The notes under the pieces were generated by a model. That model ran no database searches. It saw only the letters and a list, made by a program, of their open reading frames with translations, and had not been told where the DNA came from. Positions 26,063 through 60,510 of a stretch of DNA of 64,000 bases are shown here, in pieces. Location: NCBI GenBank assembly GCA_036389555.1, contig DASVPS010000281.1, forward strand, positions 7,943-71,942. Reading direction: 5' to 3'. This stretch comes from Pyrinomonadaceae bacterium (GTDB lineage: Bacteria > Acidobacteriota > Blastocatellia > Pyrinomonadales > Pyrinomonadaceae). Both the position numbers and the translations under genes were made by a program. Position 1 is the stretch's first letter. Each line of letters begins with the position of its first letter.

Positions 26063-26080
26063 GTCGGGAATCCTCGAAAG

Positions 26081-26178
26081 AGAACGATGAAGGTGGAGCG
26101 TTGAACGCGGAGCGTTGAACGAAAGAGAACTGTTTTTACTTAATCATTCATTGTTCATCGTTCATCGTATCCATTCAC
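26081..26178. repeat. Imperfect word-based hairpin (GATGAACG/CGTTCATC family)
   Basis: GAACGATGAAGGTGGAGCGTTGAACGCGGAGCGTTGAACG ... TTCATTGTTCATCGTTCATCG. The arms share words with 2168-2383 but pairing is only partial. Confidence 0.5.
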
Positions 26179-26300
26179 CGGCGGGTTGCGAATCGTTCAC
26201 AGGGGGCGTTGGGGAGATGCTCTATGCCAGACGTCTCAGGCGCACTCTAATAAGGCGAGGCCGCGCTGTCAAGATTTGGTGGGAGAGCGCGTGCAAGGGT

Positions 26301-32150: not shown

Positions 32151-32253
32151 TTTTAGATTCTTCCGCCCGGCGAATTACTTCGTCCCAGAACAAGTATTCA
32201 AGCTCTTCGTCAGCCGCCCTGCGGTCTTGTCACGTCCGGCTGAGATGAACCGT

Positions 32254-40808: not shown

Positions 40809-40878
40809 AGGTCAGAGGTTAGTTAAAGACACACGAGTGATTTTTTAACTAACCTCTGACCTCCGACCTCTAACCTCT
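40793..40878. repeat. Heptamer-word hairpin, GAGGTCA/GAGGTTA family
   Basis: AGAGGTCAGAGGTTAGAGGTCAGAGGTTAGTTAAA ... TTTAACTAACCTCTGACCTCCGACCTCTAACCTCT. It overlaps the tadA 3' end and ends 10 nt before the tRNA. Confidence 0.9.
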
Positions 40879-40887
40879 CGCCTTTGC

Positions 40888-40977
40888 GGAGAGGTCGCAT
40901 AGTGGCTTAGTGCACCGGTCTCGAAAACCGGAGTGGGGGAAACTCCACCGTGGGTTCAAATCCCACCCTCTCCGCCA
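40888..40977 (+). tRNA. tRNA-Ser (anticodon CGA), CCA encoded
   Basis: The GGAGAGG acceptor stem pairs with CCTCTCC. Anticodon stem CCGGT/ACCGG with loop CTCGAAA, a long variable arm (GTGGGGGAAACTCCAC), T-arm GTGGGTTCAAATCCCAC, discriminator G and CCA. Confidence 0.9.
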
Positions 40978-40978
40978 C

Positions 40979-41030
40979 ATTTCTTCCAAGCTCAACTAGT
41001 CAGAATTTCTTCCAAGCTCAACCAATCAGA
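40979..41030. repeat. Tandem 26-bp duplication directly 3' of the tRNA
   Basis: ATTTCTTCCAAGCTCAACTAGTCAGA / ATTTCTTCCAAGCTCAACCAATCAGA, 24 of 26 positions identical. Confidence 0.85.
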
Positions 41031-42622: not shown

Positions 42623-42687
42623 AAAGTCCTTTCTCGTGTCCTGAATCGCTGAGACTTTATTGTATCGTTCCAGCCATCGAACAGGAG

Positions 42688-42960
42688 ATGAGCTACAACG
42701 AAATTTGTTTTGTGATTATACCATTCGGTAATAAACCCGTCTGAGATCGAGCAGTTGATTTCGACAACATCTACGACACTGTTCTCGCTCCGGCAATTGC
42801 TGCGACGCCTCTAACGGAAGGCGGGCTGCGCCTCTCGGCTGTCATCGCATATCTCTGTGAACGTCCGCTGCGGGAAATAATTGACACCCACTTCCGACAG
42901 GGATTATCTTGCCTGAGTCTCACTCCTCGCTGGTTCCCTGACGAACGTCTTTCTCGTTAG
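42688..42960 (+). pseudogene. Truncated, stop-interrupted paralogue of the N-terminal domain of the 41279-42622 protein
   Basis: AGGAG-ATG, then MSYNEICFVIIPFGNKPV, in-frame TGA (42742-42744), then DRAVDFDNIYDTVLAPAIA... Compare CFVLMPFGRKPD / VDFDAVYNNLLAPAIA in the intact gene. Similarity is lost after ~50 codons, and a stop follows at 42958. Confidence 0.6.
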
Positions 42961-43287: not shown

Positions 43288-46200
43288 ATGCACTTCTTTA
43301 TTGAACACACGCAATTGACGAGTCAGGCGAGCAGCGGCGATGGCTTCGGCCCTTCGTCCGCAGACTCGACCAACAAGTATGACGTGTCCGCCAATTTCCA
43401 GTTGGCGTCAGACGCCAAGGCTTTTGCTTGCCAGCCGGGGCATATCATCGTCACGGACTTTTTTGATGTGGCAACGGGTACTTTGGATCCGAACCTGGTG
43501 AACGTGATCCTGAAGCCGACGGCCGGGCTTGGGGTGGCCTTCCCCACGGTGAAATTTTACATCTACCGCGGCATCAAGCGTGACAGTTTCTTTACTGCCG
43601 GCAACTTCAACGCGGAAGACCCCAGCACGAACACTGATACGGTGCGCAAGATGTGGGAGGATTGGCATGCAAATGCCGCGAGCAGCCCGCCCCCGATTGC
43701 GCCGAGCGATCTGGGGTACGATGACACGCTCCCCGACACGGAACCCATCGAGAAGATTTTCAGCAACTCCCTCGTCACCATCTTTGGGACTCCGATCCGT
43801 GCGCGGCAGGTAGAAGAGGGCGAATGGATCGGCACTTTCGGCTTCAGCAAGAAAATCTGCTTTGAAGTGATTGTGGAAGCCGAGTTGCTCAACCTGAATC
43901 TGGAGTACGCTAAGAAATCCAATGCCCAGATCGACATCACCGCCATGACGGCAATTACCAGTCCCACGCCCGCGCAGCTCCACACCTTACGCTGCGAAAA
44001 GGAGAAAATCCTGGCCTATGTCGATCCGGCCGCCTTGTTCGGGATGCACTTCTCTGTCGGGGTTAAGGGATTTGGCCTGGCCGCAGCAGCCAAGCGTGAC
44101 ACCCTGGTGACGACGTTCCTCACCAATTTCAGCACCGCCACGCGCGTCTATATCGACATACGGAGCGATAAGGGATACTCCTACAATTTCTACGATAACT
44201 ATGGCGGGGGAGGAGCGAGCCCGAACCTGATTCAGATCAAGCCCGGATCAGCCCCAGCCTTCGTGGATCATGTTTACCTCAACCAGGGATGGCCGCTCTT
44301 TTCGCAAGCCGGTGTGACAGGGCCGGCTTCCAAGATCAACTTTGGTCTTCGCCTGCGCATAGACGACAACACCAAGCCGCTGTTGTTTGTAGAGAACAAA
44401 AGCTACCTGCCCAGCGGCAGCAAGAATTTCCTGGATCAGACGAAGCTCCTGAACGGCGCGGCGGTGGACTTGAGCAAGGCCTTTAACCTGAGATTGGATG
44501 GGAGCGGCGCGGCCGGTGCCAAGGTCTGCGTGTCCACCCACGTGCGGTTACAGTACCTAAAGCAAAATACAGGCGCTGTAGTGAACCCTCGCCTGCTGCA
44601 ATTCAACCACCACCTCGACACGGTGTTCGGGGGCATCGACCTGCCCATCGTCGGCTCCGTGGTCACATTCCAAGAGCTGCGCAATGAAAAGGTGGGCTTG
44701 GCCGAAGGCGCGGAGTTTGCCCATGTGCCGGATACAGGCATGTACTTCGACCCGGATGTGGTGCTGTTGTACAGCTCCTCCCGGGTTGCCCATCGTACCA
44801 ACCCCGATTCGTATCCGACCGCCGACTACGTCATCTCAACGCTCGACAACGTGGTGCGCAGCCCTGTCTTTCCGAGCGACATCGTGTTTAGCCGATGGTC
44901 TATCGTTGAGGGCGGCACCACGATCCACCTGATCGACCTCAGCTTGTATAAGAAGGGGGTAAAGAACACCTCGATTGACGGCATCTTCTTTCTGGGTCTG
45001 AAGCGCGACGAGTTGACCCGGCTACAGGCCACTACAGGGTTCGGCCCCGTCCATCAGCGGTTCCTGGTCTTCGAGGAGGCGGCCGACCAACTGGACGACA
45101 ACGGCATTCCTTATAAGAAATTTGAGGTGAAGGTGCAGGGACTGGATACGGCCGGCCAGCGCATTTTGGTGGCGCCCAACCCGGCGGTGCATGTGTTTGG
45201 GGCAGGCGCGAACATGTTCTGCTCAAGCGACTTTACCAGCTTCGTGAACTTGCCGGATGTGCCTCCCGATCCTGGGATGATGAAGCAGTGGAAGCTTGTG
45301 TTTGCCGGGACGTACCAGCGAGGAGATGCCTCGGTGGATGCAGTGGAACCTACGGGTAGAATCACGGTCAGTGACATCGGGAACGACTTTGGCTCAAGCA
45401 GTCCAAGAATAAGGTTGCGGGGTCGTTTATTCTTTCCAATCGATGCGGCTGGCGATACAACCCCCAGCACCAGAAGAACCAGTTATCCCCTGGTGGTGGT
45501 TGTGCATGCGAATGGAAGCCTCTTCACGGAATATGATTCGTTGGGGAAACACCTCGCACAAAATGGCTTCATAGTGTCGGTGATCGACCTGTTGATTTCC
45601 AGGTCCAGGGCTAAGCTGATTCCCGTCGGGGGCATACCTGTCGCCACGCATTTCGTGGAGGGTTCGGCGCCAATACTTGTGGTCAACCTGCCTACGAGCG
45701 AAGTTTTTCGGTTTGATACTTCGACAGGCACCACTACTCTGCTGCCATTGACTGCGGGCGTGGACTTCGACATCGACCCTACCCCGCCACTGTCAATCGA
45801 ATTCACCACAGGACCGCGAAACTTTCATCACCTCGCATCACGTGGCCGTGCAAATGTCATCTTCAAGCATCTCGAAGTGCTCGCGCACAGGTTCGGGGCG
45901 CAAGTAGAGGACAACATCGGCTTGATCGGGCATAGCCGGGGAGGGGAGGCCGTGGTGCGTGCTCCGGCTGTGATTGGGGTATCAAGCCCACCTGCCAGTT
46001 TGAATAATATCAACGCGATCATTTCCCTGGCGCCGACCGACCGTTATGAGAAAGAAAATCTAACTGAGGACATCCCCTATTTTGTTATGTACGGGTCGCG
46101 CGACGGGGATGTGTCTGGCGCTCGGGAAAACCGAAGAAAGCATCTGACGCCGGCACAGCCCACCGTACATTCAGGGAGCGGGGCTTTTTCGCTCTATGAC

Positions 46201-47031
46201 CGTGCCAACAACGACACCGTCAAGTCCATGGCCTTCGTTTATGGTGCCAGTCACAATGGGTTTATTACCACCGCCCGTGGGAGGGAACGCGACGTTAGTA
46301 ACCTCAGCGAAAGAATCCAAAAGGCGGCGGTACGTTCCTACATGAATGCCTTCATGCGGCAACACCTGCTCGGAGAGGCGATTTGGAGAAGCTATTTCAC
46401 CGGAGAGTTTATCCCGGGCTCGGTGGGCACGAACAAGATTTTCCCGCAATACAAGGAGATGGCGGCTGCCAACTTCCGAACCATGGACGACTTCGAGGAC
46501 ACAGCCGTAGATGACCCGGCCATCAGCTCGTCGGGTGAAGCGGTGACCCACAGTCGAGGCGGCACGGGACTGGAAGAGGGTTTCCTGAATCCGTTCGCGC
46601 CCACCATCGATGTAGATTCCCCGCATGAAACCTTTGGCTTGAAAGTCAGTGGCTGGGTGGCAAGCGACACCCTTGCCTTCACGGTCACCACCAACGCTGC
46701 CGGCCAAAATGTGGACGCATTCAGTCACCTGAGCTTTCGTATCACGCAGGTCGCGCGCAAAACCAATTCCAGCATCGACAGTTTGAGCGTGGTGGTCGAG
46801 GACACGCTATCGCAGCGATTTGCCGCACCTTTGGGCAGAACCGTTCCTGCTCCAGATCGCAGACCTGATTTGTCCAACTTGACCAAGTCTGCTCTCATGA
46901 CAGTCCGCATCCCCCTTGCCACTTACAGAGATAATGGGGTGGATCTGACCAAGGTGAGATTGGTGCAGTTTGAATTTCCGACAGCGGGAGCCGGCAACAT
47001 AGAGATCGATGACGTCGAATTCACCCAGTGA
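43288..47031 (+). CDS. Giant protein A (1247 aa): unknown ~700-aa N-region, alpha/beta-hydrolase (chlorophyllase/PAF-AH/cutinase-like) domain, C-terminal beta-sandwich-like tail
   Basis: Uninterrupted ORF with no signal peptide. Hydrolase signatures are YPLVVVVHANG, IGLIGHSRGGEAV (Ser ~883), YGSRDGDV (Asp ~939/941) and GASHNGF (His ~989). The terminal ...VRLVQFEFPTAGAGNIEIDDVEFTQ resembles ends of carbohydrate-binding / galactose-binding-like modules. Confidence 0.8.
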   Translation: MHFFIEHTQLTSQASSGDGFGPSSADSTNKYDVSANFQLASDAKAFACQPGHIIVTDFFDVATGTLDPNLVNVILKPTAGLGVAFPTVKFYIYRGIKRDSFFTAGNFNAEDPSTNTDTVRKMWEDWHANAASSPPPIAPSDLGYDDTLPDTEPIEKIFSNSLVTIFGTPIRARQVEEGEWIGTFGFSKKICFEVIVEAELLNLNLEYAKKSNAQIDITAMTAITSPTPAQLHTLRCEKEKILAYVDPAALFGMHFSVGVKGFGLAAAAKRDTLVTTFLTNFSTATRVYIDIRSDKGYSYNFYDNYGGGGASPNLIQIKPGSAPAFVDHVYLNQGWPLFSQAGVTGPASKINFGLRLRIDDNTKPLLFVENKSYLPSGSKNFLDQTKLLNGAAVDLSKAFNLRLDGSGAAGAKVCVSTHVRLQYLKQNTGAVVNPRLLQFNHHLDTVFGGIDLPIVGSVVTFQELRNEKVGLAEGAEFAHVPDTGMYFDPDVVLLYSSSRVAHRTNPDSYPTADYVISTLDNVVRSPVFPSDIVFSRWSIVEGGTTIHLIDLSLYKKGVKNTSIDGIFFLGLKRDELTRLQATTGFGPVHQRFLVFEEAADQLDDNGIPYKKFEVKVQGLDTAGQRILVAPNPAVHVFGAGANMFCSSDFTSFVNLPDVPPDPGMMKQWKLVFAGTYQRGDASVDAVEPTGRITVSDIGNDFGSSSPRIRLRGRLFFPIDAAGDTTPSTRRTSYPLVVVVHANGSLFTEYDSLGKHLAQNGFIVSVIDLLISRSRAKLIPVGGIPVATHFVEGSAPILVVNLPTSEVFRFDTSTGTTTLLPLTAGVDFDIDPTPPLSIEFTTGPRNFHHLASRGRANVIFKHLEVLAHRFGAQVEDNIGLIGHSRGGEAVVRAPAVIGVSSPPASLNNINAIISLAPTDRYEKENLTEDIPYFVMYGSRDGDVSGARENRRKHLTPAQPTVHSGSGAFSLYDRANNDTVKSMAFVYGASHNGFITTARGRERDVSNLSERIQKAAVRSYMNAFMRQHLLGEAIWRSYFTGEFIPGSVGTNKIFPQYKEMAAANFRTMDDFEDTAVDDPAISSSGEAVTHSRGGTGLEEGFLNPFAPTIDVDSPHETFGLKVSGWVASDTLAFTVTTNAAGQNVDAFSHLSFRITQVARKTNSSIDSLSVVVEDTLSQRFAAPLGRTVPAPDRRPDLSNLTKSALMTVRIPLATYRDNGVDLTKVRLVQFEFPTAGAGNIEIDDVEFTQ

Positions 47032-47042
47032 GGTCAACGACG

Positions 47043-47426
47043 ATGAGTACCTACAGCCTTCGCGCCGCCGAAGTCGTCTCGCAATACGACGAAACGAACT
47101 TGAACATGATCGACATCACCATCACGTTCGAAGATGGCAAGTTCATGGTCGGTGCGCTGTCATATCAAGTGACGGCAAGTGACGGTTCCAACACTGCGGA
47201 AAGCTTTATGGCATCCGTTTCCCCGAATGGAAAGGAACTCCATGCCTTTTTCACAACCGATGCGTTTGACGGGATGTCCGGCCTTGTCACCTTCGAGTTC
47301 TCTTACGGCGAACCCATCGGCACCATTGAGAATGTAGACGTTCCGGCCATTCTCACGCCCTTGCCGACATTCCTCGCCGCCCTCAATTTCCCCGACGCCG
47401 ACAATGCCTGGTTGGCCGCCTTATGA
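47043..47426 (+). CDS. Small strongly acidic protein (~127 aa) between giant proteins A and B
   Basis: ATG 47043 lies 9 nt after GAGG. The alternative GTG 47028 overlaps the stop of protein A (GTGA). The sequence is beta-rich with very few K/R, and no family is recognised. Confidence 0.65.
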   Translation: MSTYSLRAAEVVSQYDETNLNMIDITITFEDGKFMVGALSYQVTASDGSNTAESFMASVSPNGKELHAFFTTDAFDGMSGLVTFEFSYGEPIGTIENVDVPAILTPLPTFLAALNFPDADNAWLAAL

Positions 47427-50400
47427 TCGATCCTCAAAACAGGGATTCCTTATGACTACGCCGTTTTATCCGCCTCTCTCAAGACTCATCGACGCCAGTG
47501 CCATCCCGGGCGACTTTCAGGACTTAGAAGACCTCGCCCAGGACGGCATCGATCTCATCCTTGGCAAGGTCTTCTACAAAGACCTCGTCACCGACGTGTC
47601 CACCGACGGCGTGACCCGTTACTACAGCCTCACCATCCTCACACAGGAACTCAAGCTGCCGCTCCTGGGGTCTGGGATGAATTTGGTCTTCTTCCATGGC
47701 GCCACCACGGGCTTCTCCGAGTTTCCCATCATTTTCGATTGGCGGTGGGAGGTGTACAAGTACATTTCCCGTCTGGAAGAAGGAGGGTTTTCCGCGCTCC
47801 CAGAGGCGTTCGTGGACATACTCCTGGAGTTGGCGGACATAGAGGATCGCAGCGCCTTCATCGGACAGATCGTCGAGGTCTTTCTGAACGATGGCACCAA
47901 TGCTTATCAAGACTTCCTCACCAACCTCATCGCCAGGATCGAGGACTACGACGACGGCAGCGACCCGGGCATCACCACCGAGATCACGAACATCACTACC
48001 CAACTCGGTATCATCCAGACCGAGGTGGACAGCCTGTTGACTGGTTCCAACCTCTACAGCATCGGCTACCTCTACGAGAACTATCAGGAGAACGGCACGC
48101 TGCAGGCCGCAGTGACCTCCATCGAGACCTCTATCGACACCCTCTCCGAGAATTTTCAAATCGACATAGACCTTCTGGGCGACTTCATACACTCGGCTCT
48201 GGGCAACCTCGGCGACCTCGACGAGAAGTTCGACAAACTCGCATGGCTCTTCCAGAGCTGGTTTGACGGCATCACCAAGCAGGACTTCTATGACCTCGTC
48301 GTGCCGCAGTTTTCCCTGGCACTTGAGAACATCAACGCCGCCCTGCAATTCCCGCGCAACTGGCTGCTGCCTGTGGTCGAAGACCCCGTGGCTTCCGGTA
48401 ACTGGGTGGAAGACCCAGACCCCAACAAGATGGCGGCCGTCGTCTTCACTATCGGCACCCTCAAAGTCTCGACCAAGAAGGGCTTTGAGTTTGAGAACCA
48501 GTCCAGCTTCAGCTTTGACCGAGCCATGATCGGCAAGACCGGAATCTTGCTGCAGTTCGACGGCCTGAAGGTGGACATGAGCAAGGCTTCCAACATCTCT
48601 GAGGCCGATGCCGACGGGCGGCCGGAAGACTTCATGGGGATGTATGCGGAAAGCGCCACCGTCACCCTGCCCGCTAAATGGTTCAAGGAGCCTGACGGCA
48701 CCAATGCCGAAATCTTCGGCGAGAAGCTGCTGATCGGAACCGGCGGCGTCTCCGGCAGGATCGGCCTGCGCGCGCTCGGCGGCGACAACATGTTCTGGGT
48801 GAAGCTCGGCGAAAGCTCCGGCTTCGAGTTGGGCTTCAGCAGCTTCGACATCCTCTTCAAGCAAAACAAGGTCGAGTCTTCCAACATCTCGGCCGCGATG
48901 AAGATCGCCAGGTTCGTCTATCCGGCAGGCCACGCCGACGCCGGGCAACCCGTCGAGATCGGCGTCACCGGCCACATCCACGACGATGGCGACTTCAACC
49001 TGACTGCTTCCACCGAGCCGCCCTTTCCCATTGAGTTGGAGGATGTGTTCGTCTACCACATTCGCAGCCTGGAACTGGGTCGCGACGACGACCAGTACTA
49101 CCTCGGCACCTCCGGCAAAATAGAATTCCAGGGCTTCCTGAAGGACACCTTAAAGCTGGGTGCCATCGAGGTGGAGAAGCTGCGTATCTACAGCGATGGC
49201 AGCATCGAGTTTGAGGGTGGGTCGATCAACCTTGTCGAGCCTATCGTGCTTCCGCTCGGCCCCGTGGAGATCACGGTCACCGCCATCCACTATGGGTCGC
49301 ACCAGAAGGAAGTGAGCGGCGTCATGCGCAAGTTCAACTACTTCGGTTTCGACGGGGGCGTCAGCGTAGACCCGCTCGGCATCGAAGTGCGGGGCGACGG
49401 CGTGAAGTACTACTACTGCACGGACGACCTGCCGAACAAGCCTTCCCCTTATCTTCATATCCAGACCCTCTACCTCGACCTGACGATCCCGGCCTCTTCG
49501 CCGGCTGTGATCCTGAACGGGTGGATCTCGATCCCGGAACCCGGCATCTCGCCCGAATACGCGGGCGGTATCAAGCTACAGATCCCGCAGGCCAAGATCG
49601 CCGGCGGCGCGGACATGAAGCTGATTCCACGCTATCCTGCCTTCATCGTGGATGCGAGCATCGAACTGCCCGCGCCCATCCCTCTCGGCCCAATCGCCAT
49701 CTACGGTTTCCGTGGCCTGATCGGGTATCGCTACGTGGCGGAGAAGGAAGCCATCGGACTGCAATCCGGCGTGCATAGCTGGTACGACTATTACAAGCAC
49801 CCGCCCCGTGGCATTCACGTAACCAAATTCAGCGGCCCCGACCGCACCAAGACCTCCGGGACACCATTCTCGCTGGGCGCGGGGGCGAGCCTCGGCACCT
49901 CGCCGGACAACGGCACGATCCTGAACATCAAGGCCATGATCCTGCTGTCTATCCCCTCCTTATTCATGATCGACGGGCGGGCGGCGGTGCTCAGCGCCCG
50001 CTTGGGACTAGAGGACACCAAGGAACCGCCTTTCTTTGCCTTCATCGCCGTGGGCGACAACTCGCTTGAGTTCGGCTTCGGCGCCGACTTCAAGATGCCC
50101 ACGAGCAGCGGTGACATCATCACCCTGTTCGCCGAGGTGCAAGCCGGGTTCTTCTTTAACGACTCCTCCAAGTGGTACGTCAACTTCGGCACGAAGACGA
50201 ACCCCATCACCGCCAAGATCATCCGCATCCTCACGATCAAGAGCTACCTCATGCTCAGCGCCAAGGGCATCGAGGCGGGTGCGCGCGGTGAGTTGAGCTT
50301 CAAACGCAGCTACGGCCCCATCAAGGTCAATGCCTGGGCTTACATCGAACTGGGCGGCAAGATCAGCTTCGAGCGCCCGCAGTTCGGAGCGTACATGGCC

Positions 50401-53400: not shown

Positions 53401-54591
53401 GACCACCCAGACCAGTCGCCCTTGACCTCTCTTCGCCAGTACCTCGACTACGGGCGCTCCTATCCGAACGCCGACGGCAACCTGCTGGGCGCCAAGCCGC
53501 TGTTCTATGATTCGGAGGTGACCAAGATCGACTTGTTTTTCCAGAAGGCATGGGCACGCCATTTCTTTCACGAATGGCCGGCCTACAACGGCCAGCCCGC
53601 AGCGGTCGGCCGCATCAAGATCGTGATCAAAGACCCTGCGGAGGGAACCAGCATCGTGAACCCACCCTATCTGGACTACGACCCGGCCGACACCATTCAC
53701 GTCAACATCCCACAGACGGTGGAGTCCTGGCAGGACGACACAGACCCGTTGGTGCCGCCCGTGTACCAGCAATACCAGCACTTGCTGGAATCGCAGACTT
53801 GCGTGCTGTATGGCGGCCTGACCATCAAGCCCAAGTCCGAGTACACGCAGGTGTTTCCCAAGCACCTCAAGCCGAGCAAGGTCTACACCGCGCTGGTGAA
53901 TAACCTCTATGACATGGACGGGGACGGGAACTTCGATGAGTTGAACGAGGTGCGTGAGGTACACAAATTCGTATTTCAGACTTCGCGCTACAAGGACTTC
54001 GCCGCGCAGATCAATAGCTGCCTGCTGAGCGACGGCGAGGGGGCGAGCCTGGTAACGCGCCCGGCGATCTTCAGCGTGCGCAAGGGTCTGACGCCGGTTG
54101 AGGTCGTTGCCGCTTATGCCAACGTGTCAGGTGCCGCCAACACCCTCGCTGATGGCCTGTCCACTCAATATCAGCACCGGTTCGACCGTCTGATCGAGGG
54201 CATCTTTGCGCTCTCGCCGCTGGAGGCCGCGCAGACCACAGAGTTCAACCTGATACGGAACACCAACGACAGCGACAAAATCGTGGCCGTGCTCATACGG
54301 AACCCGGAGCCTTTCAACAACCCGCGCATGCCGCTGGAAGACGTGCAGGACACCGTGACCGTGCTGGACGGAGCCGGCAACCCTGCTCCGGGCTACCGAG
54401 TCTTGTTTTCGAAGGATTATTCCCAACTGATCGTCATGCACAACAGCCTGGAGATCAACGGCCCCTGGGACATCCGCTTCCAATACAAGCTCTGGGACGG
54501 CTCCGCATATGTGGTGCCCGGCACACCCGATTACAGCACCGATCTTGTCGGCACGGTCGTGGTTAGTGGGCTGGACTTCGCGAGTTTTTGA
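47404..54591 (+). CDS. Giant protein B (2395 aa from ATG 47404; 2379 aa if ATG 47452): uncharacterised, with central coiled coil and propeller-like module
   Basis: Single uninterrupted 7.2-kb ORF. Acidic helical N-region, a long beta-rich middle, and a coiled coil (QITALENQIAAIEHQNNLIALRLAEGQLQ). A ~385-aa module at nt 51847-53085 is homologous to the N-terminus of protein C. No signal peptide, Walker A or HExxH motif was seen. Confidence 0.8.
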   Translation: MPGWPPYDRSSKQGFLMTTPFYPPLSRLIDASAIPGDFQDLEDLAQDGIDLILGKVFYKDLVTDVSTDGVTRYYSLTILTQELKLPLLGSGMNLVFFHGATTGFSEFPIIFDWRWEVYKYISRLEEGGFSALPEAFVDILLELADIEDRSAFIGQIVEVFLNDGTNAYQDFLTNLIARIEDYDDGSDPGITTEITNITTQLGIIQTEVDSLLTGSNLYSIGYLYENYQENGTLQAAVTSIETSIDTLSENFQIDIDLLGDFIHSALGNLGDLDEKFDKLAWLFQSWFDGITKQDFYDLVVPQFSLALENINAALQFPRNWLLPVVEDPVASGNWVEDPDPNKMAAVVFTIGTLKVSTKKGFEFENQSSFSFDRAMIGKTGILLQFDGLKVDMSKASNISEADADGRPEDFMGMYAESATVTLPAKWFKEPDGTNAEIFGEKLLIGTGGVSGRIGLRALGGDNMFWVKLGESSGFELGFSSFDILFKQNKVESSNISAAMKIARFVYPAGHADAGQPVEIGVTGHIHDDGDFNLTASTEPPFPIELEDVFVYHIRSLELGRDDDQYYLGTSGKIEFQGFLKDTLKLGAIEVEKLRIYSDGSIEFEGGSINLVEPIVLPLGPVEITVTAIHYGSHQKEVSGVMRKFNYFGFDGGVSVDPLGIEVRGDGVKYYYCTDDLPNKPSPYLHIQTLYLDLTIPASSPAVILNGWISIPEPGISPEYAGGIKLQIPQAKIAGGADMKLIPRYPAFIVDASIELPAPIPLGPIAIYGFRGLIGYRYVAEKEAIGLQSGVHSWYDYYKHPPRGIHVTKFSGPDRTKTSGTPFSLGAGASLGTSPDNGTILNIKAMILLSIPSLFMIDGRAAVLSARLGLEDTKEPPFFAFIAVGDNSLEFGFGADFKMPTSSGDIITLFAEVQAGFFFNDSSKWYVNFGTKTNPITAKIIRILTIKSYLMLSAKGIEAGARGELSFKRSYGPIKVNAWAYIELGGKISFERPQFGAYMAAGVGADIDIKIVSLYASFDVLFGVEGAKPFKIYGEFKLCVKISIFWVFSFKFCGNLSIAWEFNSTVDRTPVNPMLNASSATSISELVKGVNMLSNETFGLAFLGTGIPANRPTAVLQKIIPLDTYIDFKSEKGLIPNAVSAVIGGVTNPPLRYEDLVPPDKIIRGKEVRQVKHQYSVTSVEIKSWNPSTNSWQDYNPWKALYPSDPALDALRAGQFQKTDGQYNTIRLLGTSPFSYTEQGQPGWYIPEQNGLTPGVLFCQGEARVERCADFLEKPLGHRYFCPDDNSLFYSNQVAFLLLDHQPSGFAEIVAAPNVFGFARSLRIRNTHRLQVRLPHPSVLITLRMTTQAQRVRVNYFASLQDDDAMQVGYGHPDPGAADPLAPHSVVVLRSDLNQPLVYDQPTWLPVTRIEVEPITANEAQITALENQIAAIEHQNNLIALRLAEGQLQDTRPLEAELEKLRSEDCERRDTQTGGVVAGSSATFVNQYTNPDLTLRSASVFNETTQTYAYAVGRTEQRAVVIKTALGGETEWCRHLEISSAPLSFYEIVQLEGKDGLGYVISGYDGKRFFLVCIDTEGRERWSKEIATLDADPQALVLSTPAKDGFYFIYSDRNELDARLMPKVLRFAADGTLLISRQLETPETRHQGFVVNTAGVHAEGLTVAGRLLTSTGLKSSPTIGRRPAGRTRLASEGLTLGIVVDLRADLHVTAAWSYDNMTIQSIAVFGAGRYVLSAYHYDINGIMLFQRGLSTVDSFYEVPLTRDMQSVLCTSADGFYLSTHNQTLGQVSRFDLRFNAVWTKGMILEDNELGIRAISYNQQESLLSFTTLDVPLLGVSGPDLDTCISLEKPRIVLKQHALKYGSLGVRAELFRLISTQTQGKWSDIRPQRVMVCAPLDPTKTACNTLLHQICWLSLEDYQYNIFIPGQPAIEEDTQATISGLTDYIQPIWRPDTSYAVRIALKDLVDDDPAAAGDFSYAFGFTTGGPVGYFHTHPNADYGDPDHPDQSPLTSLRQYLDYGRSYPNADGNLLGAKPLFYDSEVTKIDLFFQKAWARHFFHEWPAYNGQPAAVGRIKIVIKDPAEGTSIVNPPYLDYDPADTIHVNIPQTVESWQDDTDPLVPPVYQQYQHLLESQTCVLYGGLTIKPKSEYTQVFPKHLKPSKVYTALVNNLYDMDGDGNFDELNEVREVHKFVFQTSRYKDFAAQINSCLLSDGEGASLVTRPAIFSVRKGLTPVEVVAAYANVSGAANTLADGLSTQYQHRFDRLIEGIFALSPLEAAQTTEFNLIRNTNDSDKIVAVLIRNPEPFNNPRMPLEDVQDTVTVLDGAGNPAPGYRVLFSKDYSQLIVMHNSLEINGPWDIRFQYKLWDGSAYVVPGTPDYSTDLVGTVVVSGLDFASF

Positions 54592-54621
54592 GGCCAAGTT
54601 ACCCGAAAGAATCTCAAGCAT

Positions 54622-57600
54622 ATGACCTTCGTCAATCAATATATAAACCCTCCGCTCACCCTCGGAAACGCCGCCACCTTCCTGGAGGACAAAGACCCCT
54701 TTCTCTATGCGGTGGGGCATGCCGGCAGGCAGGCTGTGGTGATCAAGACCAGGACCGATGGCTCCACCGTCTGGGCGCATGGGTTGATGATCGGGCAGTT
54801 GGAATTACGGTTTTACGACATCGTGCAACTGCGTGGCACCAAAGGCATCTGCTATGTGATCAGCGCCTACAGTGGCGAGCAGTTCTATCTGGTGTGCATT
54901 GATACGGCCGGGCAGCAGTTGTGGATGGCGGAAGTGTTTACGCGCGATGCCGATCTGCATGTCTTCATGGTGGCGAATGCCAGACGAGACGGATTCTACC
55001 TTGCCTACTCCGACAAGAACGATCTGGACAGCAGCCTCAGCCCCAAGGTGCTGCACATGGATGCAGACGGGAGCTTGCTGGCCGAGCGGCAGCTCTTTGT
55101 TCTCGATGAGAAGCACAATGGCTTTGTTTTGAACACCATTGGCGCGCACGCGGAAGGTCTCATCGTGGCTGGCCGCCTGATCGCGAATCCCTCTATCGGA
55201 TGCACGATGGTCTTGAAGGAAGACCTGACAGGGGAAGTGGTCATGGCCTATCCCGGCATGACCATCCAGAACATGTTGGTCTATTCCGCCGAGCGCTACG
55301 TTGTCTCCGCCTACAGTAATGCCGACGATAGCGTAGTCCTGATGCAGGAAGGCTTCGGCACCCCGGACGAGTACCTTGTGGTTCCCAAGTCTGCGAACAT
55401 GGATTCCGTGCTCTGCTTCGCGTCCAAGGGCTTCCTGCTGTCGGTGTTGAATCCGTCGAGGGGCGAATTGTATTTCGTAGACCATGATGGACAGGTGCAG
55501 TGGCGCAAAGGCACCGTGATCGATAACAACGCGCTGGGCGTGCGTTCGATGTCTTACGAGCCGGCGCTGGATCGCGTCAGCTTCACCACCGTTGACGTGT
55601 CGCTCCTCGGACTGACGGGGTCGGATTTCGATCCCTGCATCGTGTATCCGATCTCTCACGAAGCGTTCCGCCGCCAGCCGCTCAAGGCGTACCGTCTGCA
55701 GGCTCGCACGGAGGAGTTCAAGGTCTCACTTGAGGGATCGAAAGGGGAGTGGCAGAAGATCGAGACGCGGCCTGTGCCGGTGTGCGACCCGAAGGGGGAC
55801 GTTAAGGATGAGCCGCCGTTGCAAGTGGATCGAAATGCGTTACTTCAAAGTCCGCACTTGTACCTGCAAGCGGCCGGCTCCCTGGGGGCGGACAGCACAA
55901 AGGGAATTCACCTGCGCTGGCTCCTGAAGCGCGCGCTGGCTACACACCTGCCCAAGGCCAACTACGCCGTCCCCTTCGTGAACTTCAACAAGCCCGAAGA
56001 CTTTGTACGCATTTACCGCGCTTCCTACTCGGCTCGCGTGCGTTCGGTGGACTTCAGAGAGAAGCCCCAACTGCTGAACCCTTACGAATGGGTCTATCAG
56101 AGCGCCGGGGAACTCTTCTATTTGTACTTCCTGAATCGTGCGCGGTATGACCAGGTTCGAGCCGGCATTGACCCTGCCCTAGACCCACAGGGATTCCTCA
56201 CTGCCTACGGGAATGCTCTGCTGGAACTGGAGCACAAGACCAAGCTGGCCTTTGCTGTTCAGTTCCTCTTTACGTTCCTCAACTCAGCCAGCGTGGTAGA
56301 CCTGGAATTGCGGAGCGTGGAAGAAAACAAATTCACCGCACCACGCGCCGTGAGCCTCCGGCAGCACTACGTGACGCAGCAACTCAACCAGAAGAAGCTG
56401 TTCAGCGAGAACATACGCAGCGTCCGCTTCAGGGCTAGTCAAGCCGTACTCATGCAGGTGTCGTTTGAGTTTTATGCCGACTACCTCTCTGCCTCTCTGG
56501 AGCAGGGCGGATGGAAGTTCATCGGGGAATACGCGCTCACCAAGGACAATGTGGTGGCCTTCCAAAGACTGGAACCCACGCCGGGGAGCGTCCATGGCAA
56601 CTGGCTGCGCTATAACGACGGCGCTCATGTCAACATCGACAACTACCGGCAGAAGTGGGACTCCGGCGCACTGCCTCCAGAGAACCGCATCCGGGAAACC
56701 GTGAAGAAGTACATCGCACTCAGCGACGACCCCACCAACCCCGAAGCGAAGGAGTTGATCTTCTACAACGACCCTGCCGCCACGCCCATTCCCGGTTTTG
56801 AGCCGGAGGAGGACTTCGACCCATCCGATAACCAGTTCGAACTCTCCAACTTGTTCTTACTACAGATCGCCTCACTGGACTATCACATTGCCCGCATGCT
56901 CGGTCTGGGAACGCTCGACCTGAGCGTTGACATCATGGCAGGGTCATATGTGTACCTTGCGGAATACATCACGCTCGCAGACCTTCAGGATGGATTGGGT
57001 GCGCGACGGGTTCAGCACCTCTACATGTCGCTTCCGACCTCGTTGCAGGATCAGCGCCGTCCCCTCCCCGTCGATCTCAAAGAGCCGGTTCCGGGTGTGA
57101 TCTTCGGCCCCGACACGGAAGCCCCGGCCGTGCTCACCGATAGCGATGGTTACTCGCAGGACGGGCATACGCGCTACCTCTCGCTGTTTCACGAACCCTT
57201 GCCCGAAGAACCCGTAGACGCCCCGTTCTTCCAGCCCGCCTTCCTCTTCGTCAGCGCCGAACGCACCCTGCCTGTGTACGCGGGCATCGAGTATCGTCAA
57301 ACCGGAGCGCCGGATTGGGTGAAGCCAGAGTTGCCTTTCGATCCGGCCTGGCTAAATGTGGATGCCACCGTGAGCGACGACTTCAAGCAGGAGACCCGGC
57401 ACGTTGTCATCCCCGATCCCCTCTATCCTGTGTTCGTCCACCGTGAGCGACAGACCGGCTGGCACGACTACAGCTCCTACGGCATCAACTGGTTCAGCCG
57501 GGCTACCGCAAGCGCCGTGGTGCAGTCCATAGAGACCAACATCATACCCAACAACCTGCTGCTGCCGCCCACCAACGTGAACGCCCTCCTGGTGGTGCGG

Positions 57601-60510
57601 GAGCAGCCCCTTTTCCTGACCTCGGCCGCAGAGCAGGCCGCGCTTGCAGCGATCACCACCGCCGACAAGACTTTTATACGCCTCACCTGGGACTACAACC
57701 ACGGGCAAGAGCTAATCGATTACCACCGCGAGATCAATGGCGAACTCCTCTCCGGCTACGCGGAACTGCCGGATGCCCAAGAGCTGTTCGCCGAAGACAT
57801 CGAGATCTATTTCCGCGACAGCATCCCCAACGCCGTAGGCGGTCAGGTCGTGTCGGTGACCAATGACGCGAATCCGATCTTGGCCGTCGTGACCACGGGC
57901 GAGTATGTATTCGACAGCATGGGCACCGATCCTGTGACCGGTCTACCCGTCGAAAGTCTCATTCCCGATCTGCCGGTTGCGCTGGAGCCGAACTTCATCG
58001 GCGGGCTGCTCGTCGTGGACGGGATCAACTACCCGATCCATGCCATCGACAACAGCGGAATCTACCCCAAGTTCACCGTCTTCAAAGTGGACGTCGACGG
58101 CAATGCGGTGGGCTTGGATACCAGCATTCCCCCTTCGGAACTGAGCGCCCCACCCGTGAACGGCCTCTTCACCGCCGTGGAGAACATGGCCGCCACCGCC
58201 AATTGGGGAGCCGGTAACCCGCTTGGCCTACTCGCCCACGTGGAGCCGACCACCATCCACCGCGAAGAAGTCCACGTGCGTCAACCCGATGGCACCATCG
58301 ACACGCACGTCCACAAGTTCCGGGGTGTGTACCGTAACGCGCTCATCGAGGCTGTGCTGGAAGACCACGACGCTGACGAGGCCGATGGCGTGGACCCGAG
58401 CGACACGCCACGCATCCATCAAGGCTTGTACAAGCTCACCTTCACGGGCTTTGCCATGCCGCAGCATTCGCAGGCAGGCGGGTCAGGCCATCGGATCGAG
58501 TTCAACAATGGCGTGTTGCGTATCCACACGACGGCCTCGCCCACCGGGGCGCGTAAGGAACTTACCGTGGTGCGTACAGAGAACATCGGCACCTCAAGCG
58601 ACCTCGTGTTGTACGCGGCCGACACCAGCTTCGTCGTGGGCGACCCCACCTATGACGCCATCCCGCTCGGAGTGCAGTCCGTAAACTACTACCCCGGTTA
58701 CCGCGCTTACCTGTTCGCGGACGCGCCGCACAACCTGACGGAGGCCAACACCTTGCCGAGCGGTGATGCCCACGTGCGCTACACCATCTTCGGTCTCCGC
58801 TGCCACGATTCTGCGCTCGGGTACTACTCGAAGATGTCGGTGCCTGCCCTCATGTTTGCACAGGCTGTGAGTGAGCCACAGCAGCCCAGGCTGCCCGAAG
58901 GCGGCGTCTATGCCACACGTCCCGATTTCTACGGCAAGTCCACCTTCACCTTCACGACCCTCTTCGAGCATGCGCCTTATTGCGTACAATACCTGCGCGC
59001 CAGCGACATCCAGATTTTGCGTGCGCTCTACACCACGGACGACGGGGGCAACCCGGCAACATGGACTGTGGAACGCATACAGGAGGAGATTTTCGGCAAC
59101 GGTGCAGACGAGTGGTTCGACGACCGCTGGCGCAATCTGACGGGACTAAACTACACCTATCCGTCCAACCCCTCCAACAACGGGCGCTTTGAGGAGTTGC
59201 CGGCGGGCGGGACGGCGCTACCGCTGCCCAACAACCCCAAGTTCTTCGCGGCCGTGAATGCTTTCATCGACAGCCACAATGCCTTCTATGGCACCTCGAT
59301 CCCGCACCTGATTACCATCTCCTCCTTGCATCAGGTGGTGATCCCTGCCTCTGCCGTCAACGCAGAGCTTCAGGTCAAGGACTTCCTCCGAGAGACCATC
59401 CAGAACTGCTTCCTCCCCCTCACGGAGATTCCGATCATCTACCAGCACATCAAGGGCTTGAGCTACGAGCCAATCCCCAAGAAGCAAGTGGTGCGCGACC
59501 GCAACGGCGTGCTGTTGTCTCCCGGTCATCCGGATTTCGACATGGCGCCGATGGTCAAGAAGGTGGGACCCGACCCATCCGCCGCTCCGCCGAAAGTGCT
59601 GAACGAGACGCAGTTCACCGACTTCAATCTGGACGGAGCTTCAAATGCTCATTACTTCTACGCGGTCAGGGAATTCAACCTCAAGATGCAGGCCGGCGCG
59701 TTCAGCCCCGTCCTCGGGCCGGTTCACATGGTTAACGCCGCCCCGCCGCGTGCGCCGGAGGTGATCAAGGTCACGCCGATTCTGGAGCAACGCGATCTGG
59801 ACATCGCGCCCGCCATCGAACTTCGCATCAATGGCTACCTGGCGGTGCAGCACATCAAGACGCTTCAGGTCTATCGCGCTACGAACGGCCTCGACGCACG
59901 CTCGGTACGCACCATGACCAAGCTGCCCGAGATCGACGTGGAGGCCACAGGAATGGCCTCCGACACCGTCTGGCTGATCAGGGACGATTTTTCAGACCTC
60001 GGCTACGTGCCCTATGGCGACCCGCTCTTCTACGTGCTCACTGTGTCGCGTGCTGTAGAGTACCTTGATCGCGAAGGCATTCTGGTCGCGGACGTCGTGC
60101 CTTCCGAACCGTCCAAGATGGTGCTCACTAACATCGTGGAGAACTACAATCCCGACCCGCCCAAGCTGAAATACTATTCGACTCCGGTGAATGGAAGCGG
60201 TGAGTTGGAGCAGGTCACGCTTGTCTGGGACAAGAAGGTTCACAACGGGAAATACCACCTTTACCAGCGCAACGCCGATGGCAACTGGATCGAGATCGCG
60301 ATGGTGCAGGATAACTCTGCCCGGGTCGTGCTGGCCTTGGCCTCCTCGTCCCTTGGCAGTGGCACGCTTCAGGTGCAGGATGGCAGCGGTAATCCCATCT
60401 ACCATCACTTCAAGGTGGTCTCAGAGAACTTCGCCGGCATGATCAGCCGAGACGAGGAGATTCTCACCATTCACCAGCCCGCGCTCTGGGAGGACATCTC
60501 TACCCTGTAG
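54622..60510 (+). CDS. Giant protein C (1962 aa): N-terminal propeller-like module paralogous to protein B, long unknown middle, FN3-like C-terminal repeats
   Basis: Uninterrupted 5.9-kb ORF starting 30 nt after B. MTFVNQYINPPLTL... aligns with TFVNQYTNPDLTL... inside B. The C-terminal segments APPRAPEVIKVTP...VYRATNG and PDPPKLKYY...VTLVWDKKVHNGKYHLYQRNADGNWIEI look like fibronectin-III-type sandwiches. Confidence 0.8.
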   Translation: MTFVNQYINPPLTLGNAATFLEDKDPFLYAVGHAGRQAVVIKTRTDGSTVWAHGLMIGQLELRFYDIVQLRGTKGICYVISAYSGEQFYLVCIDTAGQQLWMAEVFTRDADLHVFMVANARRDGFYLAYSDKNDLDSSLSPKVLHMDADGSLLAERQLFVLDEKHNGFVLNTIGAHAEGLIVAGRLIANPSIGCTMVLKEDLTGEVVMAYPGMTIQNMLVYSAERYVVSAYSNADDSVVLMQEGFGTPDEYLVVPKSANMDSVLCFASKGFLLSVLNPSRGELYFVDHDGQVQWRKGTVIDNNALGVRSMSYEPALDRVSFTTVDVSLLGLTGSDFDPCIVYPISHEAFRRQPLKAYRLQARTEEFKVSLEGSKGEWQKIETRPVPVCDPKGDVKDEPPLQVDRNALLQSPHLYLQAAGSLGADSTKGIHLRWLLKRALATHLPKANYAVPFVNFNKPEDFVRIYRASYSARVRSVDFREKPQLLNPYEWVYQSAGELFYLYFLNRARYDQVRAGIDPALDPQGFLTAYGNALLELEHKTKLAFAVQFLFTFLNSASVVDLELRSVEENKFTAPRAVSLRQHYVTQQLNQKKLFSENIRSVRFRASQAVLMQVSFEFYADYLSASLEQGGWKFIGEYALTKDNVVAFQRLEPTPGSVHGNWLRYNDGAHVNIDNYRQKWDSGALPPENRIRETVKKYIALSDDPTNPEAKELIFYNDPAATPIPGFEPEEDFDPSDNQFELSNLFLLQIASLDYHIARMLGLGTLDLSVDIMAGSYVYLAEYITLADLQDGLGARRVQHLYMSLPTSLQDQRRPLPVDLKEPVPGVIFGPDTEAPAVLTDSDGYSQDGHTRYLSLFHEPLPEEPVDAPFFQPAFLFVSAERTLPVYAGIEYRQTGAPDWVKPELPFDPAWLNVDATVSDDFKQETRHVVIPDPLYPVFVHRERQTGWHDYSSYGINWFSRATASAVVQSIETNIIPNNLLLPPTNVNALLVVREQPLFLTSAAEQAALAAITTADKTFIRLTWDYNHGQELIDYHREINGELLSGYAELPDAQELFAEDIEIYFRDSIPNAVGGQVVSVTNDANPILAVVTTGEYVFDSMGTDPVTGLPVESLIPDLPVALEPNFIGGLLVVDGINYPIHAIDNSGIYPKFTVFKVDVDGNAVGLDTSIPPSELSAPPVNGLFTAVENMAATANWGAGNPLGLLAHVEPTTIHREEVHVRQPDGTIDTHVHKFRGVYRNALIEAVLEDHDADEADGVDPSDTPRIHQGLYKLTFTGFAMPQHSQAGGSGHRIEFNNGVLRIHTTASPTGARKELTVVRTENIGTSSDLVLYAADTSFVVGDPTYDAIPLGVQSVNYYPGYRAYLFADAPHNLTEANTLPSGDAHVRYTIFGLRCHDSALGYYSKMSVPALMFAQAVSEPQQPRLPEGGVYATRPDFYGKSTFTFTTLFEHAPYCVQYLRASDIQILRALYTTDDGGNPATWTVERIQEEIFGNGADEWFDDRWRNLTGLNYTYPSNPSNNGRFEELPAGGTALPLPNNPKFFAAVNAFIDSHNAFYGTSIPHLITISSLHQVVIPASAVNAELQVKDFLRETIQNCFLPLTEIPIIYQHIKGLSYEPIPKKQVVRDRNGVLLSPGHPDFDMAPMVKKVGPDPSAAPPKVLNETQFTDFNLDGASNAHYFYAVREFNLKMQAGAFSPVLGPVHMVNAAPPRAPEVIKVTPILEQRDLDIAPAIELRINGYLAVQHIKTLQVYRATNGLDARSVRTMTKLPEIDVEATGMASDTVWLIRDDFSDLGYVPYGDPLFYVLTVSRAVEYLDREGILVADVVPSEPSKMVLTNIVENYNPDPPKLKYYSTPVNGSGELEQVTLVWDKKVHNGKYHLYQRNADGNWIEIAMVQDNSARVVLALASSSLGSGTLQVQDGSGNPIYHHFKVVSENFAGMISRDEEILTIHQPALWEDISTL

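Follow-up and report, generated by a model that had tools for sequence, protein, structure and literature searches.

Four linked genes encoding three giant proteins in a Pyrinomonadaceae genome: a candidate polymorphic effector-delivery cassette

What would a bacterium gain from three giant proteins encoded side by side with one small acidic protein? This question is raised by four genes, here called A, S, B and C, that lie within a 64,000-nucleotide stretch of contig DASVPS010000281.1 from a Pyrinomonadaceae bacterium (Acidobacteriota); this whole stretch is referred to as the window. The gene set encodes about 630 kDa of protein, and more than 5000 residues per locus are annotated as 'hypothetical protein'. 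An earlier note, made from the letters alone, had suggested a multi-subunit toxin, delivery or surface complex while leaving room for a defence role. Our comparative genomics fits that suggestion, since A is polymorphic, a partner gene goes with it and the giant subunits carry swappable binders; the question of defence stays where the note had left it. Based on these sequence comparisons, we propose with about even confidence that A, S, B and C make up a new polymorphic effector-delivery complex that does not depend on Sec, similar in logic to the toxin complex (Tc) family and not homologous to it.

A conserved gene order with a polymorphic first gene

Conservation was followed in 85 fetched loci and the window (86 in all), whose open reading frames (ORFs) were called and clustered. 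The order of A N-domain gene, variable middle gene or genes, B and C is kept in 76 of the 86, in several phyla and thus beyond the source genome. Searches of a protein collection returned 90 matches for A, 125 for B and 93 for C, those of C being mostly full-length and a few of them being B proteins reached through a common propeller. With about 90-125 full-length homologues per protein, these ORFs are not chance; C is also 100% identical to P0121, a protein of a Pyrinomonadaceae (Acidobacteriota) metagenome-assembled genome (MAG). When one genome per species was scanned, relatives of B were found in 259 genomes. The best 80 of these 259 are nearly all Bacteroidota (Flavobacterium, Chryseobacterium, Crocinitomicaceae, Kordia, Tenacibaculum, Mesonia and others), and a single one belongs to a Planctomycetia MAG. 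Of the full cassettes, the closest are metagenomic, a Chloroflexia MAG being among their sources. Those of the window, L002 and L091 are 70-86% identical and lie in entirely different flanks, which indicates that the four genes travel together. Two cassettes are present in some genomes (L037/L058 and L043/L045), and the A proteins of such a pair are unequal in length or are followed by different partner genes. By tblastn, A had no match in 72,556 plasmids and the B core none in 50,697 phage genomes, while B and C occur together on 1 of 2.9 million IMG/VR contigs.

Gene A combines a constant N-terminal domain with an exchangeable tail. Short Bacteroidota homologues align with A over about 52% of the query, in the N-domain only, and a 712-aa protein of L001 shares 24% identity with this domain. 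A profile search with the N-domain reached 1408 clusters at 50% identity, yet the domain has no match in Pfam or the PDB and belongs to no named family. Between close relatives it is 80-84% identical, versus 51-59% for the hydrolase half. The tails that follow it in homologues fall into at least five unrelated classes, with matches to chlorophyllase/PAF-AH hydrolases, Peptidase_C15, Astacin, DUF3289 and He_PIG. Judged from these domain matches, A has the organization by which polymorphic toxins are recognized, namely a constant N-terminal part joined to unrelated, exchangeable C-terminal enzyme domains.

Some homologues of A depart from this plan or extend it. Tails of 16 of the 31 short homologues contain the invariant motif SxxHxNGxAxD...HNxHLH; their assignment to the LAS/M15 peptidases was considered, and as Pfam and PDB profile searches were negative it stands as a motif resemblance only. 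Where A is only about 700 aa long, a separate protein of about 1100 aa comes next (clusters 3 and 6; no Pfam match). In a subset of loci a subtilase is either fused before the A N-domain or encoded upstream of A, as a separate gene in five Bacteroidota loci. The fusions (P0391 and 15 other proteins of 1.9-2.8 thousand residues; L088 10001-21847) place a Peptidase_S8 subtilase ahead of the A N-domain and often end in a Peptidase_C15-like C-terminus; P0391 lies directly before a B homologue. The subtilase could be a processing protease for the cassette.

In the window, the tail of A is predicted to be an enzyme. Pfam matches to PAF-AH_p_II and Chlorophyllase reach 15-16 bits, under the curated cut-offs, and are all that A gave when compared with Pfam, NCBIfam, PHROGs and PADLOC. 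Against the PDB, the region matches 9xg1_A, a 'protein-asparaginase', with an E-value of 1.3e-6 as a single sequence and 4.5e-10 as a family profile; this was the only real match obtained when A, B, C and S were searched against PDB sequences in both ways. The profile match spans the hydrolase and the C-terminal domain of A. In A, the GHSRGG elbow, the Asp motif DGDVS and the His motif HN(G/Y)F stand in register with 9xg1_A, and GHSRG at aa 881-885 (45928-45942) is the only GxSxG elbow in the four proteins. Since elbow, Asp and His all match a solved homologue, we assign the C-terminal half of A to the alpha/beta-hydrolases on sequence grounds, in line with the earlier note. The C-terminal domain is probably a beta-sandwich that goes with the hydrolase.

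Gene S is tied to this particular tail. It accompanies a hydrolase-type A in 12 of 12 loci and occurs with no other tail type; the other tails are followed by partner gene clusters of their own (clusters 9/42, 16/21, 27 and 19). S always lies directly upstream of B, even where a gene for a WG-repeat protein is inserted between A and S. Its identity to the window copy is 58% in L002, 39% in L004, 31% in L086 and 30% in L003, with an invariant D-A-D-N-x-W-L at the extreme C-terminus and an FFT(T/V)DAF motif. S has no match in Pfam, NCBIfam, PHROGs or PADLOC, and none in the PDB by sequence or family profile. Between the window and L002, A and S share 70% and 58% identity versus 86% and 83% for B and C, which indicates that A and S have diverged faster. 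The co-variation of tail and partner follows the classic pattern of an effector with an immunity protein or adaptor, and the second feature of polymorphic toxins, a small cognate downstream gene that co-varies with the toxin domain, is present as well. We predict that S acts on A in one of two ways, as immunity protein or as adaptor/chaperone.

The giant subunits B and C

B is the largest of the four proteins (residues within it are counted from 47404). An AlphaFold2 (AF2) model covering aa 440-1500, with a mean predicted local distance difference test score (pLDDT) of 76, shows a meander of strands at 451-1060, linked by short turns on both sides, then mixed beta domains, then long helices at about 1418-1463. 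The top Foldseek matches of this model in the PDB are the LptD, SlpA, PapC/FimD and SprA barrels and the beta-belt of ApoB100. Their probabilities reach 0.99-1.0, but the template modelling (TM) scores are 0.1-0.2 and the identities 6-9%, and with such TM scores the matches are not taken as homology. The B core is read, from the model, as a very large up-and-down beta-sheet that would be barrel-like or belt-like. The helices support the coiled coil proposed in the earlier note, and coiled-coil proteins are the only PDB profile matches of the B family. B has no match in Pfam, NCBIfam, PHROGs or PADLOC. Barstar matches of B (E >0.02) were dismissed as chance because they disappeared with the family profile, and no relationship between the B and C cores was found when their family alignments were compared by hhalign.

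The region of B that may work with A and S was indicated by relatives of DUF6603 (PF20248). B itself does not match this family. Its homologues P0031 and P0102 reach 28-30 bits (cut-off 27); such matches fall in the meander region, with E-values of 1e-6 to 2e-7, and cover profile positions 3-144 only. In P0120, on the other hand, the N-terminal domain of B (aa 21-520) recurs at 46% identity in a protein that otherwise carries a bona fide DUF6603 domain (full match, E 5e-121), although this N-domain is the only part that P0120 has in common with B. The P0120 gene sits behind a pair of hydrolase-type A and S, which suggests that the N-domain is the part of B that works with A and S. This arrangement belongs to a variant system seen in a coral metagenome (L086 1-19935), where A (hydrolase) and S precede the B N-domain joined to a full DUF6603; by BLAST, the proteins of 987 and 2141 aa that come next are not similar to C. 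A different back end can thus be combined with the front end (A, S and the B N-domain).

B and C also share an exchangeable module. Residues 1482-1893 of B and 2-390 of C are 42% identical (E 1e-90) and the duplication is seen at the DNA level too, so that the duplicated propeller-like module of the earlier note is borne out; its likeness to the beta-propeller of CylK comes from a profile match of the C copy (E 0.007). The insert is missing from the B homologues of Flavobacterium, L003 and L004 and is therefore lineage-variable, and a few other B homologues have Laminin_G_3 or DUF1508 matches somewhere in the protein. In C, conservation among homologues starts at LQSPHLYLQAAGS. The module ahead of this point is replaced in homologues by VWA, Big_1/Invasin_D3, Filamin or BspA-type leucine-rich repeats (LRR), and it is missing altogether in P0137 (1595 aa, 79% identity). 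By their domain assignments, the modules swapped at the C N-terminus and in B are of types typical of extracellular recognition.

The conserved core of C was modelled over aa 406-1605 with a mean pLDDT of 86.6. Foldseek against the PDB returned generic FN3/Ig/macroglobulin arrays, with probabilities <0.3 for the large matches. In BFVD it returned phage minor-tail and tip-attachment-J proteins (E 4e-8, TM 0.09), and these matches appear, from the model, to reflect generic FN3 arrays. The FN3-like repeats that had been placed at the end of C thus have a counterpart in beta-sandwich arrays with FN3/Ig-type matches, within a model that ends at residue 1605. C has no match in Pfam, NCBIfam, PHROGs or PADLOC. 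A single-sequence match of C 406-492 to the Tc subunit YenA2 (E 0.3) was rejected as chance, being gone with the family profile.

In a Flavobacterium subset, tail-fibre-like genes lie within the cassette, with Phage_fiber_rpt/DUF5907 before B and Gp53-like_C after C. One of these loci (L001, Flavobacterium CP100437) has a gene for a CHAP-domain protein and two small genes upstream of the cassette (272-1533), and Gp53-like_C, Phage_tail_APC and DUF5977 genes downstream (23260-26901). The flanking genes may be fibre or lysis accessories of a single Flavobacterium sub-lineage.

The locus and its flanks

The four genes are closely packed on the + strand, both in a mechanical ORF list and in a direct reading of the junctions (Table 1), which agrees with the compact, co-directional unit described before. 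The TGA of A (47029-47031) overlaps a GTG at 47028 and is followed after 11 nt by an ATG at 47043, which has GAGG upstream of it at 47030-47033. S is 127 aa long from this ATG, and the GTG would add five codons. The stop of S occupies 47424-47426, with the ATG of B at 47452 coming 25 nt after it, and the stop of B (54589-54591) is followed 30 nt further on by the ATG of C at 54622. B most likely starts at ATG 47452, giving 2379 aa, rather than at ATG 47404 (2395 aa), because the 86%-identical homologue P0002 starts there and gene callers agree; on an identical public contig the called lengths are 127 aa (S) and 2379 aa (B). Promoter and terminator scans of the locus gave no signal above shuffled sequence.

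Table 1. Positions of the cassette genes, their parts and conflict-type neighbours (window positions unless a locus is named; residues of B parts as defined in the text)
Feature	Position	Strand	Reading	Basis
ORF list	43288-47031 (1247 aa); 47028-47426 (132 aa from GTG); 47404-54591 (2395 aa); 54622-60510 (1962 aa)	+		
Gene A, 1247 aa	43288-47031	+	Putative cargo/effector	ORF; 90 homologues; first in conserved order
A N-domain, aa 1-660	43288-45267	+	Constant part of polymorphic protein	Sole part common to short Bacteroidota homologues
A Ser-hydrolase domain, aa ~700-1060	45385-46467	+	Putative PAF-AH / chlorophyllase / 'protein-asparaginase' type	9xg1 alignment
A C-terminal domain, aa ~1100-1247	46585-47028	+		Aligns with 9xg1_A residues ~560-666
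Gene S, 127 aa, pI 4.05	47043-47426	+	Partner specific to hydrolase-type A	Co-occurrence, homologues
Gene B, 2379 aa	47452-54591	+	Putative giant scaffold	ORF; start from homologues and gene callers; 125 homologues
B N-terminal domain, aa 17-520	47452-48963	+	Candidate docking module for A and S	P0120
B beta-meander, aa 451-1060	48754-50583	+	Barrel-like or belt-like	AF2 tile: ~38 long antiparallel strands in a row
B coiled-coil segment, aa ~1418-1463	51655-51792	+		AF2 helices, residues 979-1024 of the tile
B inserted beta-propeller-like module, aa 1482-1893	51847-53082	+		Paralogue of C N-terminus
B C-terminal conserved domain, aa 1903-2395	53110-54588	+		34-54% identity to Bacteroidota B homologues
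Gene C, 1962 aa	54622-60510	+	Putative targeting subunit	ORF; always after B
C N-terminal variable module, aa 2-390	54625-55791	+	Beta-propeller-like, SBBP/CylK type	Profile match
C conserved core, aa 406-1962	55837-60507	+	Beta-sandwich chain with helical segments between	Homologue conservation, AF2
MAP3K_TRAF_bd + TPR-S	41279-42622	-	Conflict-type neighbour	Flanks otherwise unrelated
EAD1-nSTAND/NACHT + EAD1-trypsin	L002 1-5201		Conflict-type neighbours	Flanks otherwise unrelated
CHAT	L091 1214-4138		Conflict-type neighbour	Flanks otherwise unrelated
TPR-CHAT	L088 3816-6995		Conflict-type neighbour	Flanks otherwise unrelated

A motif scan found neither Walker A nor HExxH in A, S, B or C, and no run of YD repeats (A has a single isolated match, B and C have none), so that these absences, too, stand as first noted. 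No signal-peptide-like N-terminus or transmembrane helix was seen in the four proteins. The cassette has a GC content of 0.55-0.60 versus 0.61-0.66 across much of the flanks. Elsewhere in the window are gyrA and ordinary metabolic genes, and the DNA is therefore chromosomal.

Upstream of the cassette lies a tRNA-Ser(CGA) gene (40888-40977). A long imperfect palindrome of AGAGGTCAGAGGTT-type units (40791-40887) is found directly 5' of it, and a 26-nt tandem duplication, within 40979-41030, directly 3'. Next comes a gene for a 447-aa protein of conflict-system type (MAP3K_TRAF_bd + TPR-S), divergent from the cassette, and a frameshifted remnant of its paralogue at about 42685-42810 (+), which reads MSYNEICFVIIPFGNKP, a stop and then DRAVDFDNIYDTVLAPAIAAT, versus MTKPLCFVLMPFGRKPDAAGSIVDFDAVYNNLLAPAIA in the intact gene. 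This remnant points to turnover of genes here. The window contains no integrase, and a search of it for att-like repeats, copies of the 3' end of tRNA-Ser in direct orientation, was negative, so a classical integrative island is not demonstrated. The island context that the earlier note had assumed is thus circumstantial, resting on the tRNA gene, the lower GC content, the decayed remnant and the unrelated flanks of related cassettes; on these data the cassette was likely acquired horizontally.

Downstream of C, a Metallophos and lamin-tail-domain (LTD) gene (60820-63006, +) encodes 728 aa, or 690 aa on identical contigs. It is not conserved beside related cassettes and is therefore not part of the system. 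The downstream secreted proteins, which had been counted in favour of a toxin or surface complex, have to be given up as support, since they are not conserved with the cassette and so do not belong to it.

Other parts of the window hold a 1327-aa protein with two WD40 propellers and a C-terminal caspase (Peptidase_C14; 22079-26062, -), an architecture typical of bacterial conflict or programmed-death systems. There are also two overlapping ORFs of 553 and 554 aa on opposite strands (30489-32156), the one on the + strand without a Pfam match, and a 426-aa ORF without a Pfam match (660-1940).

Proposed function and comparison with known systems

A constant domain, a swappable enzyme, a tail-specific partner, giant scaffolds with swappable binders, mobility, multiple copies and the fast divergence of A and S together argue for an effector system on a delivery or targeting apparatus. 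A would be the cargo, its constant N-domain of about 650 aa serving for loading or docking and its exchangeable enzyme being, in the window, a putative Ser-Asp-His alpha/beta-hydrolase related to PAF-AH-type lipases/esterases and to 'protein-asparaginase'. S would be a small acidic partner in the cytoplasm that either neutralizes A in the producer, as an immunity protein, or hands A to B through its invariant C-terminal tail. B would be the scaffold or conduit: its N-terminal domain would dock, its sheet of about 600 residues (~38 strands) could form a giant barrel or shell, its coiled coil would serve oligomerization, and it also has an exchangeable module for binding and a conserved domain at its C-terminus. 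C would be the targeting arm, presenting an exchangeable N-terminal binder on a conserved beta-sandwich stalk. Tc toxins and tailocins are released by lysis, and the proteins studied here may perhaps leave the cell in the same way. We infer that they assemble, are released, bind a target outside the cell and translocate A, so that the complex would carry a polymorphic enzyme to that target. More tentatively, and with clearly less than even confidence, A-(partner)-B-C may represent a new class of Sec-independent translocation or toxin-delivery machine, found in hundreds of species, mostly Bacteroidota, and passed between phyla, in which B is a self-inserting barrel or shell conduit and C a fibre-like arm. 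More than 1400 A cargo proteins (at 50% identity) would be loaded through the N-domain with tail-specific adaptor or immunity proteins, and the machine would be structurally unrelated to Tc toxins, contact-dependent inhibition (CDI), type VI secretion systems (T6SS), extracellular contractile injection systems (eCIS) and type IX secretion systems (T9SS); this same tentative grade applies to the picture as a whole.

Several observations weigh against an effector-delivery complex. Signal peptides, T9SS C-terminal domains and transmembrane helices are absent from all of about 300 homologues, in agreement with what had been said of the giant proteins of the window, nor is any lysis cassette or secretion apparatus kept in the neighbourhood of the four genes. 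No structural match identifies a translocation device (Foldseek TM 0.1-0.2), the metallopeptidase-like motif of some A tails is confirmed by no hidden Markov model (HMM), and immunity proteins do not usually have a C-terminal tail as strongly conserved as that of S. In immune systems, VWA, LRR and propeller modules also act as sensors inside the cell, and the conflict-type neighbours of four cassettes (window, L002, L091 and L088; Table 1) would fit a defence island. These last points lead to an alternative that we regard as unlikely and yet deserving of attention, an intracellular conflict or anti-phage defence system in which B and C are giant sensors or scaffolds that recognize proteins of the invader by their propeller, VWA or LRR modules, A is the enzyme effector of abortive infection and S restrains A. 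The lack of signal peptides, the mobility and patchy distribution of the cassette and the combination of sensor-like modules with effector-like enzymes, typical of immune systems, are all consistent with it. The proteins, however, match nothing in PADLOC and lack both a Walker A motif and signalling domains such as NTPases or nucleases, and the conflict neighbours are not common to most of the 86 loci (the Bacteroidota flanks not being systematically annotated). Bacterial Ig-like, invasin, filamin and He_PIG domains and the tail-fibre-like genes point outside the cell.

An action outside the cell would also be compatible with a surface or released structural-adhesive complex for adhesion, predation or substrate capture that translocates no toxin, with A acting extracellularly, on polymers or the cell envelope, and S as an assembly chaperone. 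The adhesin-type variable modules of C, its stalk-like core resembling fibrillar adhesins and phage fibres, the SlpA/S-layer-like and ApoB-belt-like matches of B, the docking-like tail of S and the mostly surface-active Bacteroidota carriers agree with such a complex. We nevertheless hold it to be improbable, since a polymorphic A, tail-specific partners and sequences that change faster in A and S are what marks antagonistic effectors and not housekeeping surface enzymes, and since signal peptides, sortase or T9SS sorting signals and SLH domains are absent. The likeness of C to phage proteins might further suggest a prophage or tailocin remnant or module, in which B and C are giant tail-tip or fibre proteins and A is a virion-associated lytic enzyme. 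The minor-tail and tip-attachment-J matches of C in BFVD and the Phage_fiber_rpt, Gp53-like_C, Phage_tail_APC and CHAP genes of some Flavobacterium loci speak for this. Set against them are the absence of the B core from the phage genomes and of any PHROG match, its single IMG/VR contig versus 259 species genomes, the generic nature of FN3 arrays matched at a TM of about 0.09, and the lack of capsid, terminase, tube and sheath genes near cassettes in loci with Pfam-called flanks (80 genome-locus flanks being unannotated), which makes a phage origin very improbable. A divergent member of the Tc (ABC) or RHS families would account for three giant subunits, missing signal peptides, a polymorphic payload and the weak YenA2 match, but with no Pfam or NCBIfam family match, the YenA2 match lost with a profile, no Tc structure in Foldseek and a payload that lies on A, beside an N-domain that is not RHS, we find it hardly credible.

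If an effector-delivery complex is indeed encoded, a large arsenal would have gone unnoticed in Bacteroidota of soils, fresh waters, the sea and hosts, among them genera to which pathogens of fish and plants and commensals of roots belong, and would also have been exchanged with Chloroflexota, Acidobacteriota and Planctomycetota. A new architecture would join the short list of bacterial toxin-translocation machines, and a function would be given to more than 5000 'hypothetical' residues per locus and to DUF6603-related families. Its scaffold would be naturally modular, in binders and enzyme cargo, a property that has drawn engineering interest to Tc toxins and eCIS. Should the genes serve defence or adhesion instead, a conserved gene set without recognizable domains is a clear structural and genetic target. 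Cultivable carriers include Flavobacterium sp. Root901 and Root186, Chryseobacterium sp. Leaf201, F. akiainvivens, and Kordia and Tenacibaculum species.

One of the closest known proteins is 9xg1. Like 9xg1, PAF-acetylhydrolase and chlorophyllase, A has a hydrolase core with elbow, Asp and His motifs and a C-terminal beta domain; unlike 9xg1, to which it is distantly related, it has an extra 650-aa N-domain and no secretion signal. B resembles LptD, SprA, PapC/FimD, SlpA and ApoB100 in its long up-and-down strands over about 600 residues, and SlpA also in the coiled coil associated with the strand region. As B and 119 homologues lack a signal peptide, B cannot be an outer-membrane protein inserted by the beta-barrel assembly machinery (BAM). 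A resemblance to DUF6603 proteins is seen in the weak matches of B homologues and in the P0120 fusion of the B N-domain with a full DUF6603. We found no paper that mentions DUF6603, and in the literature on DUF6603, PA0049, protein asparaginase, the accessory DUFs and giant or polymorphic Bacteroidetes toxins we came upon no account of the cassette.

The only Bacteroidetes-specific class of polymorphic toxins met in that literature, TANFOR, is different from the cassette. TANFOR is a domain of about 147 residues; most TANFOR toxins carry a signal peptide, and their export by the T9SS has been hypothesised (PMC7073777). A is like the TANFOR toxins of Bacteroidetes (PMC7073777) in having a constant N-terminal domain, a variable C-terminal toxin and a cognate downstream gene, and in being common in Flavobacteriia. 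It is unlike them in having no TIGR02542 match, no signal peptide and an N-domain of 650 aa, and in always being linked to the giant B and C.

With phage tail-tip and fibre proteins (tip attachment J, actinophage minor tail) and the fibres of eCIS and tailocins, C shares a core made of a chain of FN3/Ig-like beta-sandwiches and an exchangeable distal binding module, and fibre-like accessory genes are present in some loci. In contrast to phage fibres, it has no sequence homology to phage proteins and the cassette is nearly absent from viral contigs. The four proteins have no match in PHROG, Pfam or NCBIfam to contractile injection systems (eCIS, T6SS or tailocins). Sheath, tube, baseplate and spike genes were likewise absent among the Pfam-annotated neighbours (window and loci with called genes; 80 genome-locus flanks were only clustered). 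PADLOC-DB has no model that matches A, S, B or C. Taken together, the negative comparisons with Tc, RHS, eCIS/T6SS, adhesin and defence models uphold the view that no described system fits and that, at the level of named families, more than 4000 residues are still essentially unassigned. Within the libraries searched, the cassette would lie outside every known kind of system, its function being proposed from comparative genomics alone.

The comparison with the Tc (ABC) toxins of Photorhabdus and Yersinia is the most instructive. None of VRP1, TcA_TcB_BD, RHS/YD and SpvB has a Pfam or NCBIfam match in A, B or C, Tc structures are absent from the Foldseek lists of the B 440-1500 and C 406-1605 models, and teneurin/YD shells appear for the B model with a probability of about 0.05. 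The cassette is thus unlike Tc in sequence and fold, in having neither RHS/YD repeats nor TcA channel domains, and in carrying its payload on the first gene, fused to a novel 650-aa N-domain instead of an RHS cocoon. It further differs in its extra small partner gene, which co-varies with the payload, and in its phyla, Bacteroidota, Chloroflexota and Acidobacteriota. It is like Tc in being an operon of giant subunits without signal peptides and with a polymorphic enzymatic payload, in mounting exchangeable receptor-binding modules on a conserved scaffold, and in what would be a shared logic of binding, conduit and cargo.

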